From: Opitutales bacterium
Lineage (GTDB): Bacteria; Verrucomicrobiota; Verrucomicrobiia; Opitutales; JABSRG01
Direction of reading: 5' to 3'
Assembly (NCBI GenBank): GCA_049599475.1
Contig: JBMYOQ010000037.1
Location: 1-38,701 of the forward strand
Length of the DNA stretch: 38,701 nucleotides
The notes under the pieces are model-generated. The model was not told the DNA's origin. It saw only the letters and a program-made list of their open reading frames with translations, and ran no database searches. The position numbers and the translations under genes were made by a program. Position 1 is the first letter of the stretch; every line of letters starts with the position of its first letter. Below, in pieces: positions 2,092 through 24,179 of the stretch.

Positions 2092-3378
2092 TCAATAGGA
2101 CCATGGAGGACGCGTGTCCGAGCATGATAGTTGAACGAAAGGTTTTAGCTGCTTACGGGCGAGCGCGAGGGTCGCACGGAAAGGCAGGTTGGTCTCTCCG
2201 CTAAGAGGGACCCGTGAAATCGTAATTGAAAAATCGACACAGCGGTCTCGGACTCTTGAACCACCCGAGATTTCTGGAATTTCTTTTAGCTTTGCTTCAA
2301 AGGCATGGATTAATTTTTCGCTGTCGGCTTCGTTATCTCTCACCGAAATGGCGCCTAGTTCGTTTCGACCGCAGCGCGAGGCGTATTCCCATGACTCTAG
2401 GCAGCTCGAAACACCTTCGGCCACATGTTGAAATAAGTGCTGGGCGGCGACGTGGCCCAAGACTTCCGTTACGTCGTCAAACGCTTCAATGCGGAATAAC
2501 CAGAAGTGAGCGGGTTCTTCGAGGCGTCGCATCGTATACCGCTGCTCAAAGAGTAGGGGTTCGAGCAGTCCCGAAAGCTCATTTTGCAAGGTCTCATGAC
2601 TGTCCAAGAAGCTACGCAGAACAGGATTATCTGACCGCTCGATGATATGACTCGGTTCCGAGAGAATTGCTTTTCCTTCGTCAATCAACGCTATGTGATC
2701 GCTGATATAGAATACCTCCGGGATGTCGTGGCTTACAATTATCGCTGTAAAGCCAACCTTCTTCTGCGTGTCAGCTATCAGACTGAAAACTGCGTTGCGA
2801 CGAACGGGATCGAGTCCAGTGGTGGGCTCATCGAAAAGGACGATCTCTGGTTCGGTGATCAATGCTCTCGCCAGCGCTACACGCCGCTGCATGCCTCCGG
2901 AAATTTCACCGGGGTAATTATTCCTAATATTGTCGATGTCTAGAACATGGAGGAGTCTTACGACCTTCTTGTGCTGGTCGCGACGAGATCCGATTTTATG
3001 CTCTTTGAGGGGCAGGGCGATATTCTCGTAAACCGACAGAGAATCGAAGAGAGCGGAATTTTGGAACATATAGCTCATCCGCTTACGGAAGTCTTTTGAA
3101 GAATTCCGATTCTTGTCCCAGGAAATCGGGGATCCTCGAAATTCTACCGACCCGGCGTCCGGAGTCATAATGCCAGAAAGACACTTTAAAAAGACGGATT
3201 TGCCCGTCCCGCTCTTGCCAATGACCGTGACAATTTGCTTCTCATAGACATCAATATCCACTCCATCGAGTACTGACTTCTCGCCGAAGCTCTTCTTCAT
3301 GTCGCGGACACGGATCAAGGGTGCCGAGTCTCTTGCGAGCACGTCTTCCGCTTTTGTGTTGTCCACTACAGCATCCAT
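2092..3378 (-). CDS. mlaF: MlaF ABC ATPase with an extra ~165-aa C-terminal degenerate GGDEF-like domain
   Basis: Walker A GKSGTGKS, FQNSALFDSL, ISGGMQRRVALARAL, LFDEPTTGLDP and SHD. Residues ~266-428 resemble a GGDEF fold (see findings). Confidence 0.92.
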   Translation of the reverse strand: MDAVVDNTKAEDVLARDSAPLIRVRDMKKSFGEKSVLDGVDIDVYEKQIVTVIGKSGTGKSVFLKCLSGIMTPDAGSVEFRGSPISWDKNRNSSKDFRKRMSYMFQNSALFDSLSVYENIALPLKEHKIGSRRDQHKKVVRLLHVLDIDNIRNNYPGEISGGMQRRVALARALITEPEIVLFDEPTTGLDPVRRNAVFSLIADTQKKVGFTAIIVSHDIPEVFYISDHIALIDEGKAILSEPSHIIERSDNPVLRSFLDSHETLQNELSGLLEPLLFEQRYTMRRLEEPAHFWLFRIEAFDDVTEVLGHVAAQHLFQHVAEGVSSCLESWEYASRCGRNELGAISVRDNEADSEKLIHAFEAKLKEIPEISGGSRVRDRCVDFSITISRVPLSGETNLPFRATLALARKQLKPFVQLSCSDTRPPWSY

Positions 3379-19496: not shown

Positions 19497-22340
19497 TTAA
19501 CCCCAAATGTCGTCTTCTTCCTCCTCGGCGGGCTTTGGTTTCTGCTTTGGTTCCTTCTTTTGAAGCTTTCCGAAAATCGATCCAGTTACCTTCTTCTTAG
19601 GCTCTGCCTTTTTCTTTGGTTCCGGAGTCGGTTTCGGCTCTTCTTTAGCGGAGGCTTTATTCTTTGTCGGAATCTTTACGACTTTTGAGCTGGAGCCAAA
19701 GGGTGACTTCGTGAATTTCGGGACCTTTTTGGCCTTTGGTTCGGGCGCTTTAGGTGCTTCCGGCTCTGGAGCTGGCTCGGATGCCTTCGGAGTCTCCTCC
19801 TCATCACCCCAAATAGAATCTTCCTCTTCGGTCGCCTGGGGAGCCGGTTGTGGGGCTTTCGCCTTGGGCTGCTCCTTCGCTTTCTTCGGTTCGGCCTTTT
19901 CTTTTTTAGCCTTAGCCTTAGGAGCAGACTCCTTTTGCGGAGCTGATTGAATGTAAGGTTCTAGGCTCGAACGTATAGCGTCAGCCATTAGAGATACCTC
20001 GGCCTCAGCCTCGGCGACTTCCTTTTGGAATACTGCTAATTCTGTTTCGTGAACGGAAAGTTCCTTTTGACCCTTATTCTGGATTTCGGCCAGTTCAGCC
20101 TCCAATTCAGCGATTTCGGCCTGCGCCTGATCCTCCTGAGCTAGCAGCTGATTCTCTTCCTTCGACTTTTCTGCCTGGCGAGCTATCAGAGCTTCCAACT
20201 CCTTGTTGCGCTTGTGCAGGCGCGTTTCGGTGTCCTCAATCAAACTAGACTTCCGAGACTCGTGATCTTTCTTTGCAGAGTCTGTTGCCGCAGTATGGAG
20301 ACCTTCTTCTTCCTTCAAGCGCGTTAGATTCTCTCCGATCTCCAATCGCGTCTTCTCTAGCTCGGATTTGATACTCGCAGCAGCTTCCGATCGTTCGCGC
20401 ATCGCGCTGTCGAGTTCGTCCTTAAGCTTCTGTGTCTGCTTAGCGACTTCATCTCGCGCGGAAGTGAGGTCAGTGTCGTAGGTGGACTGGATTTGAGCAA
20501 TCTGTTCCTCAAGCTGGTTATCGAGGTTTTCTTGGTCCTCAACGGCCTTTAAGGTCTTCTCGTCAAGTTCGCCCTTGGCTTTCTTACTGTCTGCCAAAAT
20601 TTTAGACTCTTCGGATTCCCGAGAGCGTAGCAACTCTCCAAGTCCCGTGACTGCTTCTTCGGATTTGGTGGTTGTCTGCTCGATCGCTTCGATATCGCGC
20701 TGAATCGATTCGGTGCGTTTCTCGATTTTTTCAGCGACCTGCATCCGAGCCTCTTCAGCTTTATCCGCTGATTTTGCCTGATCTTCAGACACGCGACCCA
20801 ATTCGGCTTGAGCGGCCTCACGCTCTTCCTGGATCTTCTTGAGCCTGCGCTCGAATTCTAAGCGAAGTTCCTCTTCCTCGAGATCCTTCTGAGCGATAAT
20901 TGCTGTCTGGTCTTGTTTTCTCTTTAGAAGATCCTGCTCAGATTCATTGAAAGACTCATCAATCGACTTGATTTCCGAAAGGCGTTCCTGCTCGAGGCGA
21001 TCTGTTTCTGCCTTTAATGCGGCGATCTTTCCATTTGCCTGAGCCGCCTGGGCGCGAAGTTCTGTCGTCTGTGTCTCAAGGCGAGAGCGGGCTTCTTGGG
21101 TCGCTTGAGCGGCCTTTTCCGCCGTCATCTCGAGCATCTTAGCTTTTTCAGTAAGCTCTGAAATTTCCTTCTCAGCCTTGTTCTCTGCCTCCTTTTTCTG
21201 AGCTTCAAACTTAGCGGCAATTTCAGATTTTTTAGATTCTAGCGCCTTCTCGAGTTCGCTCTTTTTCTTCTCAACCTCAGCGTCCTCGCTAGAGGGTAGG
21301 CCTTCGAGACCGAGTTTCGCTTCCTTGGCAGCTTTTTCAGCATTCTCAAGTTGAGTGCTGAGTTCCTCAGCTGACTTCCGGGCCAATGCTATTTTCGAGT
21401 TCGCGAATTCGTTCTTTTTCGCGAACTCATCTTCGATTTTCTGAACTTCCTGGCGGTGGCGTAGAGTCTCTTGCTCTAGCTTAGCCTTGAGCTGAGAATC
21501 GGAGATAGACTTAGCTTCCTCAGAAGCCTTGATTTCGAACTTCAAGCGACCCCGTTCGGCGGCTGCGATTTCGCGCTTTTGAGTAAGATCCTTTTGTGTC
21601 GCTGCCTTCTCGGCGATGACGTCTGTCCGCTTTTTGAGCTCTCCGTTCAGTTCATCGACCTTTTCTTGAACCGATTCAGCCATCTTGCGAAGATCCTCCT
21701 GCTTAGCCTTCAGAAGCATCATCGAGCGCTGTTTAGCGTCAATTAGAGCCTTCTGCTGGATGCGGAGTATCGCCTTTTGCTTCGGATCGATATCGAGAGA
21801 TTCGATGACATCGTCTTCAGAATCATTATCCTCAGTCCCCTCATTCAAATTGGAGAGGGCTTCTGCGGTAGATTTGGACTCGAAGGCGGAAAATTCTTTC
21901 TTAGGCGCTTCAACCTTCTCAGCTTTTTTCGCTGCAGGAGCTTCTGTCTTAGCTGGCTTTGTTTCCGTTTTTTGAGGCTCTTCCGCGTCGTCACGCCACT
22001 TGGACTCTGGTTGGCTCTCGATCTCTTCGCGCATACGATCGATGTACGAACGAACACGATCACCTTTGGCTCCAGAATCTGCGAGGACGGCAATCGTGAA
22101 TTGCTGTGCTTTCGCAACGAGCAATTGCATGTCTTCAAATTCGAGTTCGATGCCATCCGGTTCGAAAAGCGCTTGTGTCGTGGAGGTTTCAAGCTCGGAT
22201 ATCAGACCACCGAGGCGCTCGCATCTTTCTGGTTTGAAAGTTTCGTCGTAACGGGACAGGATGGGGTTGCCCGATGCATCGGATACTTGAACGCAGGTTA
22301 CAGAGGAATCGCCGGAGATCTCGTCAAGAAGGATCTTCAT
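19497..22340 (-). CDS. Large protein: N-terminal Roadblock/LC7-like domain, long coiled coil, Pro/Lys/Glu-rich disordered tail
   Basis: Residues ~1-110 show the Roadblock pattern (V..V.VSD.SG..I...helix...IELEFED..L.V......IAVLA...helix). Residues ~185-795 are E/K/A/L-rich and heptad-like. The tail has EEEDSIWG and terminal EEEDDIWG. Confidence 0.8.
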   Translation of the reverse strand: MKILLDEISGDSSVTCVQVSDASGNPILSRYDETFKPERCERLGGLISELETSTTQALFEPDGIELEFEDMQLLVAKAQQFTIAVLADSGAKGDRVRSYIDRMREEIESQPESKWRDDAEEPQKTETKPAKTEAPAAKKAEKVEAPKKEFSAFESKSTAEALSNLNEGTEDNDSEDDVIESLDIDPKQKAILRIQQKALIDAKQRSMMLLKAKQEDLRKMAESVQEKVDELNGELKKRTDVIAEKAATQKDLTQKREIAAAERGRLKFEIKASEEAKSISDSQLKAKLEQETLRHRQEVQKIEDEFAKKNEFANSKIALARKSAEELSTQLENAEKAAKEAKLGLEGLPSSEDAEVEKKKSELEKALESKKSEIAAKFEAQKKEAENKAEKEISELTEKAKMLEMTAEKAAQATQEARSRLETQTTELRAQAAQANGKIAALKAETDRLEQERLSEIKSIDESFNESEQDLLKRKQDQTAIIAQKDLEEEELRLEFERRLKKIQEEREAAQAELGRVSEDQAKSADKAEEARMQVAEKIEKRTESIQRDIEAIEQTTTKSEEAVTGLGELLRSRESEESKILADSKKAKGELDEKTLKAVEDQENLDNQLEEQIAQIQSTYDTDLTSARDEVAKQTQKLKDELDSAMRERSEAAASIKSELEKTRLEIGENLTRLKEEEGLHTAATDSAKKDHESRKSSLIEDTETRLHKRNKELEALIARQAEKSKEENQLLAQEDQAQAEIAELEAELAEIQNKGQKELSVHETELAVFQKEVAEAEAEVSLMADAIRSSLEPYIQSAPQKESAPKAKAKKEKAEPKKAKEQPKAKAPQPAPQATEEEDSIWGDEEETPKASEPAPEPEAPKAPEPKAKKVPKFTKSPFGSSSKVVKIPTKNKASAKEEPKPTPEPKKKAEPKKKVTGSIFGKLQKKEPKQKPKPAEEEEDDIWG

Positions 22341-22399
22341 GGTAGGTTAGGAGAGGTTGAGAGGACGCCCCAACTTGCGATTCGTGGGGCCTTTTCGTG

Positions 22400-22735
22400 C
22401 TATGATACCAGTTTCTTAAAATCAGCTAGCGACATTGATTTTTCGGCGATAGCGCCAATCTTCAAATCGGAGTTCTGGTAATAGAAAGCGTGGTAGTACC
22501 CTGAGGATACCTTTAAGCAACGGGTGCGCGAGCCATCGAACTCCGCGCCTATCGTGTCTGCAACACGGGAAATTTGCATGATCAAAAGCTCGACAAGTGT
22601 CTGAAGTTCGCCGTCTGATGCGATAGCAGAGCCCTTCGATGAGTGCACACGGTAAGATACCAAGCGACTATCGGCGCTCAGTTGTTTTCCGATCGATTTA
22701 AGGGTAGAAGATGATTTGAGAAGACTCGGAGACAT
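22400..22735 (-). CDS. Small Roadblock/LC7-like (MglB-like) protein, divergent
   Basis: Re-started at ATG 22735 (111 aa). Pattern: helix, LVSYRVHSSKGSAIAS, helix, RCLKVSS..YHAFYY...KIGAIA, helix. It lies co-oriented directly upstream of the Roadblock/coiled-coil gene. Confidence 0.55.
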   Translation of the reverse strand: MSPSLLKSSSTLKSIGKQLSADSRLVSYRVHSSKGSAIASDGELQTLVELLIMQISRVADTIGAEFDGSRTRCLKVSSGYYHAFYYQNSDLKIGAIAEKSMSLADFKKLVS

Positions 22736-22859
22736 TGGATCGGCGGGGTATGTTCGCGGTGTGGAGGAGGAGTATCGCAGTGTTGTTCGACTTTTTGCCA
22801 GTAAATTGTTTGCAAAGAAATCGAATCGATTCAATTGACTTGCGTTTGACTACGGCTTA

Positions 22860-24179
22860 ATGCCCTTGTCCTTTAGCGATATGGAGAGATCTGTCCTGAT
22901 TTTAGACGAAGACCAAGACTACTGTAATCTTCTTGAAGAGGTTTACTCACAGGCGGAATACGATGTGACCATCGGTGATTTGAAATCGGATATCGGAAAG
23001 GATTTGGCGCGGATAAAGCCCTCAATCGTAGTTATAGACTTTAAATTCGGTAATTATCGAGGCGTCGACCTAGTTCGAATTGTGCACAATCATTCGCCAG
23101 AAAGTAAGGTGATCGTAGCTTCCGCGCCGCTTCCAGAACAGACCATTCGGGGAATGATCATGGAAGAAATCGACGGATTGTTTACCAAGCCACTGAAGCC
23201 GATTTCATTCCTCAAACGTTCGTCAGAACTTCTCGTTGAGAAGAACGAACTGGCAGACGCACAGGTAGATGCGACCAATGTGCAGAGTGAATCGAATGCT
23301 GAGACATTCAAGGCGAACTCCATTCCTGGCCGATCCTTGGCTGCCAAGCGTTTTTTGGAAAAGCTCGTTCACGTCCGTGAATTCAAGTCGCGATTACTCT
23401 TGGTGGGCGATGAGGGTAGTCCGTTTCGCGCAGTTTCCAAGGATCTGATCGGTGCTTTGGGCAAAAACACAGAAGCGCTTTCTTACTTTGAAGCCTACGG
23501 GTTGAGTGTCGAAGCACTGGAAAGCCAGGCTCTTCAGTTGAAGAAGGAAGGATTCACACGTCTGACGGTCGCAATGTTGGATGGCGAAAAGCTTACCGAC
23601 GAAGATGTCCGCGTGATCCGCGAAATACAAGCACCTCAGGGCTACTCTGAGAAGTGGGCGTTTCCTATTCGTTTTGTTTTCTGTATCCGCACTGAGTTGG
23701 ACACCCTTTACGACCGGCAGGAGATATCGACGAGCGTTTACATGACCCTCGGTGCCACCGAATTGGTGATTCCATCGTTGAATGAATGTGCCGAGGATAT
23801 TCCTCAGATTGCGCAAAAGATGATTCGCGATTTTGTGACATCGAATGGCCTGGATACGATGCCGATACTAGAAGGTTCGGCTAAGGAATACCTCAGGAAT
23901 TATCCTTGGGAAAACGGTTTCGACGAGATGGAGGTACTGCTTCAGTCGGTGATCGTTAAAGGTAATCACACACGCATTACTGAGAAGCATTTTACCGAGG
24001 ACGCAACAGAATCGAATATAGAGGAAGAGGCGGTGTCACCCTTGAGAAAGCATCTAGTGACCCAGCGCGATGAATATATCCAGGCTGTTCTCAAAATGAG
24101 CGGAGGCGATATTGAAAAGGCTTCAGCTTCCCTCGGAATTGATATTGATGGAATTAAGCGCTTCTTGGCCCAGCACTAG
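22860..24179 (+). CDS. NtrC-like response regulator (REC + degenerate sigma-54-activator AAA+ + Fis-type HTH)
   Basis: REC VLILDED...VVID...TKP; IPSL.E..EDIP.IA and Y.W remnants; HTH GGDIEKASASLGID. Walker A is GDEGSPFR and there is no GAFTGA. Confidence 0.8.
   Translation: MPLSFSDMERSVLILDEDQDYCNLLEEVYSQAEYDVTIGDLKSDIGKDLARIKPSIVVIDFKFGNYRGVDLVRIVHNHSPESKVIVASAPLPEQTIRGMIMEEIDGLFTKPLKPISFLKRSSELLVEKNELADAQVDATNVQSESNAETFKANSIPGRSLAAKRFLEKLVHVREFKSRLLLVGDEGSPFRAVSKDLIGALGKNTEALSYFEAYGLSVEALESQALQLKKEGFTRLTVAMLDGEKLTDEDVRVIREIQAPQGYSEKWAFPIRFVFCIRTELDTLYDRQEISTSVYMTLGATELVIPSLNECAEDIPQIAQKMIRDFVTSNGLDTMPILEGSAKEYLRNYPWENGFDEMEVLLQSVIVKGNHTRITEKHFTEDATESNIEEEAVSPLRKHLVTQRDEYIQAVLKMSGGDIEKASASLGIDIDGIKRFLAQH

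Follow-up and report, generated by a model that had tools for sequence, protein, structure and literature searches.

Two Roadblock proteins, one extended by a long coiled coil, and a divergent pseudo-enhancer regulator in an Opitutales bacterium

To our knowledge, prokaryotic Roadblock proteins are understood almost solely as partners of small GTPases, which raises the question what two of them, encoded side by side, might do in a genome in which no such partner is found. The question is posed by a contig of 38,701 nucleotides (JBMYOQ010000037.1 of assembly GCA_049599475.1, hereafter the window) from an Opitutales bacterium (genome G000, 96.6% complete, 146 contigs). Here a gene for a protein of 111 amino acids (aa) lies upstream of a co-oriented gene for one of 947 aa, 59 base pairs (bp) apart, while a gene for a 439-aa regulator runs divergently on the opposite strand, 124 bp from the small gene (Table 1). 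An initial annotation, made from the letters of the window, had given the first two of these sizes and the 124-bp gap, which were reproduced, and had proposed a Roadblock heterodimer that tethers a GTPase or cargo to a long rod.

The Roadblock pair and the anatomy of the large protein

Neither protein has a family match in Pfam or NCBIfam, and both stay below the cut-off of PF03259, which is reached by a relative (the RbA protein of genome G322, 27.2 bits). Despite this, the Roadblock fold that had been suspected in both open reading frames (ORFs) is supported by AlphaFold2 (AF2) models and fold searches. The models, built from shallow alignments of 3 and 5 rows, give H-E-E-H-E-E-E-H for the small protein (pLDDT 77) and helix, two strands, helix, three strands, helix for the N-terminus of the large one (pLDDT 76). 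A Foldseek search with the latter found LAMTOR3/MP1 (E 1.8e-6) as well as Thermus MglB (TM-score 0.74-0.76, with 0.76 for 3t1r), and the Atlas's own model of it has TM-scores of 0.81-0.87 to ten clusters, several of which are named Roadblock. For the small protein, Foldseek gives Myxococcus MglB and Asgard roadblocks (E 2e-4 to 7e-4), and VIA-align gives 7yh1 (Z 10.6, rmsd 3.1 Å, 105 residues aligned). The top matches of both domains are all Roadblocks, and a profile of the wider family treated below (A6) matches solved Roadblocks with E 1.6e-5. At the level of models, the Roadblock/LC7 fold of both domains (~110 aa) is thus confirmed.

The proposed pairing of the two domains was likewise predicted by ESMFold2, with an ipSAE of 0.80 vs 0.00 for the best of 3 controls (which included no homodimers and no other Roadblocks), the score mark being one that solved complexes attained in 116 of 157 cases and mismatched pairs in 2 of 215. 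The runs share at least 91% of contacts, and the partner pLDDT is at least 81. In the predicted heterodimer, strand 63-68 lies against strand 71-77 and helix 2 against helix 2, i.e. the canonical antiparallel arrangement of strand 3 and helix 2. BLASTP of the small protein against the N-terminus of the large one gave nothing, and therefore the two do not stem from a recent duplication.

The three genes were found together, in the same order and orientation, in both relatives that have them, i.e. G001, of the same genus, and G003, which belongs to the same family; the flanking genes other than these three differ between G000/G001 and G003. The small protein is 77% identical to its orthologue in G001 and 36% to that in G003, the N-terminus of the large protein 78% and 36%, and in every region of both proteins the proportion of nonsynonymous differences relative to G001 (pN 0.12-0.41) is below that of synonymous ones (pS 0.67-0.91). 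The orthologues, Verrucomicrobiota by label, have 111 and 112 aa for the small protein and 930 and 959 aa for the large one. Since those of the small protein start at the same Met, its ATG was taken as the start and a 144-aa version with a TTG start was discarded. The exact three-gene layout with the long protein occurs in 3 of 401 genomes of the same order (here, as in all counts below, kinship between genomes or loci is left in, kin not being independent), and when homologues of this exact module were sought more widely, protein searches gave just 3-4 matches each and locus searches one locus each; the long form is known from three genomes and a few metagenomic sequences. One match from these searches (P0007) was dropped as a chance match of a repeat protein.

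Apart from its head, the large protein consists of a linker, a rod and a tail. The ~600-aa coiled coil noted at the outset is borne out: over 615 residues the hydrophobic period is 3.58, with a power of 32.6 vs a shuffle maximum of 10.0 (300 shuffles), and it stays in phase in all three orthologues (power 33-35 vs shuffle maxima of 10-13, 300 shuffles each). An unbroken rod of this length would measure ~91 nm; it has conserved islands near aa 181-210, 471-510, 661-680 and 781-800, and no internal repeats were found in it. A derivation of the rod by fusion of the small coiled-coil genes that lie beside some short relatives (the short-IWG pairs below) was rejected, as no similarity was found. 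The claimed lack of a transmembrane segment stands (best 19-residue hydropathy 1.04 and 1.12), and both N-termini are globular domains, which bears on the claimed lack of a signal peptide. The initial annotation did not contain the linker, which is 38% identical to that of G001 vs 78% for the Roadblock domain, nor the tail (aa 801-947 with 24% K, 17% P and 16% E). The tail has two acidic-IWG motifs per chain in all three long forms, and the large protein is the sole one to end in IWG among the 9935 ORFs of G000. Its GSIFG motif, with a modest hydrophobic moment of 0.35-0.46, has counterparts (G[LF]FG followed by basic residues) in short RbB homologues and resembles the membrane-targeting sequence of MinD, KGFLKRLFGG (PMC5471200). 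A separate observation concerns a PilT-like ATPase of G000 with a 290-aa acidic, proline-rich N-terminal extension (C8:102278-104326), of which the C-terminus KKRGFFRK resembles the FG-basic motif and which is the sole ORF with this motif at its end.

A wider family of tandem Roadblock genes

Is the pair then an isolated curiosity? A PF03259 scan of the phylum gave matches in 23 of 301 genomes, among them G322 of the same order, with two tandem Roadblocks and no GTPase. Relatives of its second gene were found in 32 of 401 genomes of the order, including a second locus in G000 (contig C6), and with a broader profile, to which window-type rows belong, the number is 34 of 401, three of them window-type matches by construction. 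The expectation that the arrangement would be conserved across Opitutales thus fails for the exact module and holds for the wider tandem-Roadblock family. Outside the order, profile A6 found the family in 0 of 54 genomes; look-alikes in the Atlas come from Thermodesulfobacteriota, Acidobacteriota and archaea.

In all 30 loci listed, the first gene, a small Roadblock gene (rbA), lies directly upstream of the second (rbB), the latter carrying the tail. In profiles of the two slots that were built without the window proteins, the small protein falls to RbA (E 2e-4 in hhalign, 89 columns, vs 0.03 for RbB and 0.011 and 0.19 for two MglB sets) and the N-terminus of the large one to RbB (probability 87%, E 4e-6 over 90 columns, vs 0.12 for RbA and 1e-3 and 3e-4 for the MglB sets). 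Each protein thus goes to its own slot in the right gene order, albeit with modest scores, and the G003-type orthologues match the family profiles with E 5e-5 and 0.008. We infer that the window pair is a diverged and stretched member of the rbA-rbB family, in which the RbB tail would be a swappable targeting element that changes with the neighbouring genes.

Three classes of tail can be distinguished. In the first, found in 29 of the 30 RbB loci listed, the protein ends in [YF]RGxxY. A degenerate REC-AAA gene follows in 25 of these 29 and amtB directly in 3; of the 27 untruncated loci (2 at contig ends being excluded), 20 have a co-oriented amtB in the extended region, 1 has an adjacent one on the opposite strand and 6 have none, and in 5 loci of one genus a PII gene comes after amtB. 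Both PII proteins of G000 read YRGSEY. According to PMC4274968, Arg47 of GlnK blocks the AmtB pore and Tyr51 is uridylylated. Because of this likeness, the [YF]RGxxY tail looks like a mimic of the PII T-loop, and the amtB class may thus provide a non-PII protein that imitates it. The tail may also resemble DUF4278/NirP1, on which a literature search showed nothing relevant. The order-wide operon reads rbA-rbB-pseudo-ntrC-amtB(-glnK), e.g. at L077:6987-10545 and L108-L133; in G000, the two halves of the operon lie at the ends of two contigs (the Roadblock genes at C6:176-1016(-), the regulator and amtB at C111:8049-10577(-)), for which no overlap was found.

In the second class the tail runs from a G[LF]FG-basic motif to a terminal DIWG or GIWG, in G118, G281, G135 and metagenomic homologues, and an IW[GSN] end is present in 12 of 13 short-class homologues listed (P0011, labelled Cerasicoccus, and 11 others; the thirteenth is P0010). 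Two of these loci precede a rhodopsin gene and one precedes degenerate REC proteins. In the former, the short-IWG pair stands directly before the rhodopsin gene (L136:3681-5308 and L138:3626-7461), of which the motif RYIDW-LTTPLMLIKF is, by our own reading, presumably of the D-T-K type, and in L138 genes resembling lycopene cyclase and beta-carotene dioxygenase come next; the short-IWG pair is possibly a soluble partner of rhodopsin. No rhodopsin gene was found in G000. In the third class, RbB has a transmembrane part and a periplasmic domain, either FGE-sulfatase-like (L140, L141, L175-L177 and L179-L182, Pfam-checked for L140) or SNase (L134:1747-4463).

The end of the window protein (GSIFG, a K-rich stretch, DDIWG) is that of the second class, and the simplest anatomy is that of a class-two RbB whose head and tail have been separated by an inserted rod. 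A hidden Markov model (HMM) of the tail puts the window protein first when composition is left uncorrected. The three short-IWG loci are split among themselves in a 28-row tree, and the IWG tail may have been inherited from an ancestor or have arisen by convergence.

The regulator and the proposed role of the pair

Activation of sigma54 has established motif requirements, and these bear on the divergent regulator. It shares with the NtrC family of enhancer-binding proteins the layout of receiver (REC), AAA, lid and helix-turn-helix (HTH) and the receiver residues D60, S88 and K110. Unlike in that family, its Walker A reads GDEGSPF, and an alignment with intact paralogues (C26, C4) shows that it lacks GAFTGA, Walker B and the arginine finger. 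Pfam recognises REC, the AAA lid and, weakly, Sigma54_activ_2, whereas the protein is far under the NCBIfam cut-offs; the HTH is a GGDIEKAS-type helix pair by alignment, without a Pfam HTH match. The label of pseudo-enhancer was therefore apt, and because these motifs are lost, the protein, judged by its sequence, cannot be a working sigma54 activator. Its true start may be Met8 (22881), since relatives begin there, which would make the gap 145 bp.

In a quick tree the regulator is a lineage-specific second copy within the order-wide RR1 family (support 99*). Of 61 genomes, 28 have RR1 relatives, often by obgE, an MshEN-like gene (as we take it to be, reading the sequence by eye) and a second such regulator; two RR1 matches are present only in G000, G001 and G003, where the second match is the gene that adjoins the Roadblock pair. 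Elsewhere, degenerate REC-AAA genes adjoin the pair in 25 of 29 loci with the YRG tail, in G004, in G118 and in the three window-type loci. The regulators next to rbA-rbB pairs fall in different branches, i.e. at least two lineages of pseudo-enhancers, which suggests repeated functional pairing. As to the first-mentioned cluster, several genomes (L017-L041) have obgE, a ~170-aa MshEN-like protein and two degenerate REC-AAA-HTH regulators together; in G000 it is broken up (C7:4277-6578 and C7:10836-12357) and the MshEN-like gene is duplicated, with one copy before a PilB-like ATPase.

The explanation that we favour, tentatively and with somewhat less than even confidence, is that of a GTPase-free heterodimeric adaptor, the head of which docks a soluble partner (most likely the adjoining ATPase-dead regulator) while the C-terminal peptide anchors the complex ~90 nm away. 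The Roadblock heterodimer would be the docking head, the C-terminal peptide the address that ties it to the membrane or to a membrane protein, and the rod would fix the distance between the two, up to ~90 nm. By holding the regulator at the membrane or letting it go, the head would exert control by sequestration and release and not by ATP-driven activation of sigma54. For a tail peptide that binds a Roadblock dimer there is precedent, as W394, the key Trp of an acidic helix of RomR, binds a basic cleft of the MglC Roadblock dimer according to PMC12719032 and PMC10329633.

Several points weigh against this explanation. The regulator is an RR1-family copy and not the pseudo-NtrC of the amtB operons, and it is divergent, not co-oriented; before the two rhodopsin genes, moreover, the short-IWG pairs have no regulator in sight. 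Membership of the wider family is less firm for the window's own proteins, which match the family profiles weakly in HMMER (E 0.5 and 0.1, Z=10000), and the tail HMM no longer puts the window protein first once composition is corrected. A tree of 45 selected rows, with a long-branch warning, joins the pair to MglB at 91/74, and one of 28 selected rows rejects a single clade of the window-type and the three short-IWG loci (p-AU 0.013). Roadblock dimers are textbook pairs, and because like dimers are already solved, the score of the predicted dimer may reflect that likeness; binding of the regulator or of a membrane by the dimer is something we only infer. The long form is, in addition, limited to three related genomes.

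An extended version, which seems to us improbable, has GTPase-free Roadblock heterodimers act generally as plug-and-socket adaptors via their C-terminal peptides. The [YF]RGxxY class would plug AmtB or be uridylylated and so relay nitrogen status to the pseudo-NtrC, while the window class, with its 90-nm rod and doubled acidic-IWG motif, would polymerise head to tail into a new scaffold holding the ATPase-dead regulator.

A self-assembling scaffold as such is also rather unlikely: acidic-IWG tails would bind the Roadblock dimers of other molecules, the 90-nm rods, linked head to tail, would build up a polar hub or a mesh, and the regulator would be just one of its clients, if it is a client at all. 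The two IWG copies per chain would provide multivalency once the rod dimerises, the phase-coherent period across 615 aa in three orthologues is in its favour, and the contact between RomR and MglC (PMC12719032) is of the required kind; yet rod-less short homologues keep the same tail, which is equally compatible with an external ligand.

It is unlikely, too, that the regulator is merely a neighbour, with the pair acting on some other target (e.g. a membrane transporter) and the divergent layout being synteny inherited by three close genomes. The relatives linked to amtB and rhodopsin do suggest a transporter-type target, only three related genomes are concerned, the branch of the regulator differs from that in other rbA-rbB loci and several loci have no adjoining regulator. 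Nonetheless, the three genes stay together where the remaining flanks differ, an extra RR1 copy is present in exactly these three of 61 genomes, and pseudo-enhancers recur next to other pairs.

The pair could, further, be an MglB-like GTPase-activating protein or an adaptor, its partner being a small GTPase or some other P-loop NTPase (e.g. a pilus ATPase), since its fold matches MglB, since the Roadblock superfamily is linked to NTPase regulation (PMC4316618), and since G000 carries PilM and several PilT/PilB-like ATPases. We consider this quite unlikely. All 14 matches of TIGR00231 (small_GTP) in G000 lie in proteins of 329-856 aa, which by sequence are read as housekeeping-type GTPases (EF-G (2), TypA, IF2, Der (2 domains), LepA, MnmE, EF-Tu, FeoB, CysN, YchF, Obg and HflX). 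Models of Ras, Arf and ATP_bind_1 gave nothing over cut-off in G000, nor did MglA proteins of other Verrucomicrobiota match there (one of the MglA/Ras searches ran without a positive control). The tethering of an MglA-like GTPase, as originally proposed, is hence not borne out, neither in G000 nor in the 33 other genomes with Roadblock pairs: an MglA profile of 7 rows matched 0 of 34, vs 4 of 4 controls, one control genome being itself a source of the profile. Because the 34 include several drafts (72-100% complete), MglA is best described as not found rather than proven absent. Within four genes of the window Roadblock genes there is no mglA (nor among the different neighbours in G003), window-type loci do not have the conservon layout of histidine kinase, Roadblock, conserved protein and GTPase, and profile A6 finds no MglBs of the kind that is coupled to MglA. 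A landmark or ruler for flagellum or pili that replaces FlhF/FlhG-type placement is hardly to be expected either, for although FlhA is present in all three long-form carriers (and was not found in G002 or G006) and flhA of G000 has no flhF/flhG behind it, FlhA also occurs in G004 and G005, which lack the long form (so that the co-occurrence was not upheld), it is present in only 5 of another 32 genomes, with no short-IWG carrier among them, and the window genes lie outside any motility cluster.

How, then, does the proposed adaptor compare with known systems? The Myxococcus module of MglB and MglC (with MglA, RomR and RomY) shares the Roadblock fold, the dimer via strand 3 and helix 2 and a neighbouring response regulator, and the acidic, Trp-containing tail recalls the C-terminus of RomR. 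The window pair, however, is a predicted heterodimer instead of a homodimer, has no MglA found and no PF03259 match, and unites Roadblock, rod and acidic tail on one chain. The best structural matches are Asgard roadblocks and LAMTOR2-LAMTOR3 (p14-MP1) of Ragulator, i.e. a heterodimer of unlike Roadblocks that acts as a scaffold, as is proposed here; in contrast to Ragulator, the pair is bacterial, lacks a Rag GTPase and a LAMTOR1-type anchor, and is fused to a 600-aa coiled coil. Actinobacterial conservons (CvnA-D) also have a Roadblock protein in a signalling locus, whereas the window locus has two Roadblocks, no histidine kinase or GTPase, and a pseudo-enhancer instead. Bacterial polar scaffolds with coiled coils or disorder include DivIVA, Scy, PopZ, TipN and AglZ, and the window protein resembles these in its long soluble coiled coil and disordered charged tail, but differs in its Roadblock head and in having no sequence match in Pfam or NCBIfam.

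Of 749 MglB homologues, 328 are orphans not coupled to mglA, none of them characterised according to PMC4316618; the window type is likewise uncoupled from mglA, but forms a definite unit of two genes in which the C-terminal modules would be swappable. Heteromeric Roadblock complexes are framed as GTPase regulators in PMC9481161. Our literature search, most subscription papers being outside its scope, gave no account of the rbA-rbB pair or family (the supplements of PMC4316618 may list members), and nothing on Roadblock proteins in Opitutales, with amtB, PII or a T-loop, or with an enhancer-binding protein, or on MglB homologues lacking MglA. While the Roadblock fold and the dimer type are known, the tandem pair with interchangeable RbB tails and its rod-inserted form thus seem to be new. 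A recurring two-gene Roadblock heterodimer without detected MglA, with tails that vary with the neighbours, offers a direct test of orphan Roadblock function, through a dimer of 100 and 115 aa, a short tail peptide and the pseudo-enhancer and AmtB as candidate partners, and, if the adaptor reading is true, a bacterial counterpart of Ragulator-type scaffolds, although the rarity of the long form limits its general weight.

Feature coordinates and further observations

Table 1. Features of the Roadblock locus (window positions, aa numbering of the encoded protein)
Feature	Position	Strand	Basis
rbA-type gene, 111-aa stand-alone Roadblock/LC7-fold protein	22400..22735	-	AF2 model, Foldseek, VIA-align, RbA profile match
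rbB-type gene, 947-aa protein (Roadblock, linker, coiled coil, disordered tail)	19497..22340	-	ORF, orthologues
N-terminal Roadblock domain of large protein, aa 1-110	22011..22340	-	AF2, Foldseek, Atlas, hhalign
Variable low-complexity linker, aa 116-183	21792..21995	-	Identity to G001, composition
Coiled coil, aa 184-798	19947..21791	-	Period vs shuffles
K/P/E-rich disordered tail, aa 799-947	19500..19946	-	Composition
Internal acidic-IWG motif DSIWG, aa 841-845	19806..19820	-	Two IWG copies in each of 3 orthologues
GSIFG motif between lysines, aa 920-924 (candidate short membrane-binding motif)	19569..19583	-	FG present in all three orthologues
C-terminal DDIWG motif, aa 943-947	19500..19514	-	Invariant in 3 orthologues
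439-aa REC-degenerate AAA-HTH pseudo-enhancer regulator gene	22860..24179	+	Pfam, motif alignment, tree
Divergent intergenic region, presumed site of both promoters	22736..22859	.	Position between divergent genes

In the divergent gap no sigma70-type consensus was found, and a scan for promoters and terminators stayed at chance level. The gap contains the near-palindrome TCGAATCGATTCAATTGA (22818-22842), and the equivalent place in G003 (L005 near 8850) carries TTGAAACCGATTTCAA, which resembles a LacI-type operator. One RNA run (share 0.08) contained two short contigs of 193 and 259 bases, one spanning the divergent gap, which is no evidence of expression.

The other neighbours of the three genes in the window encode an RNase D-like exonuclease, an MBL hydrolase, a LON-N protein and PhoD. 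Elsewhere in G000, a flagellar cluster (C18:35848-53569) ends at flhA without flhF/flhG behind it, and a simple pattern search of this genome found no MCP or CheA motif. In G184, a long, proline-rich protein has a basic-FG N-terminus and ends in an orphan Roadblock (L046:961-1836); its gene adjoins a globin-sensor-like gene, and no MglA was found in that genome in a search without a positive control. Further upstream in the window (2092-3378), the MlaF-type ABC ATPase of an mla operon has a C-terminal GGDEF-like domain (E 7e-7).

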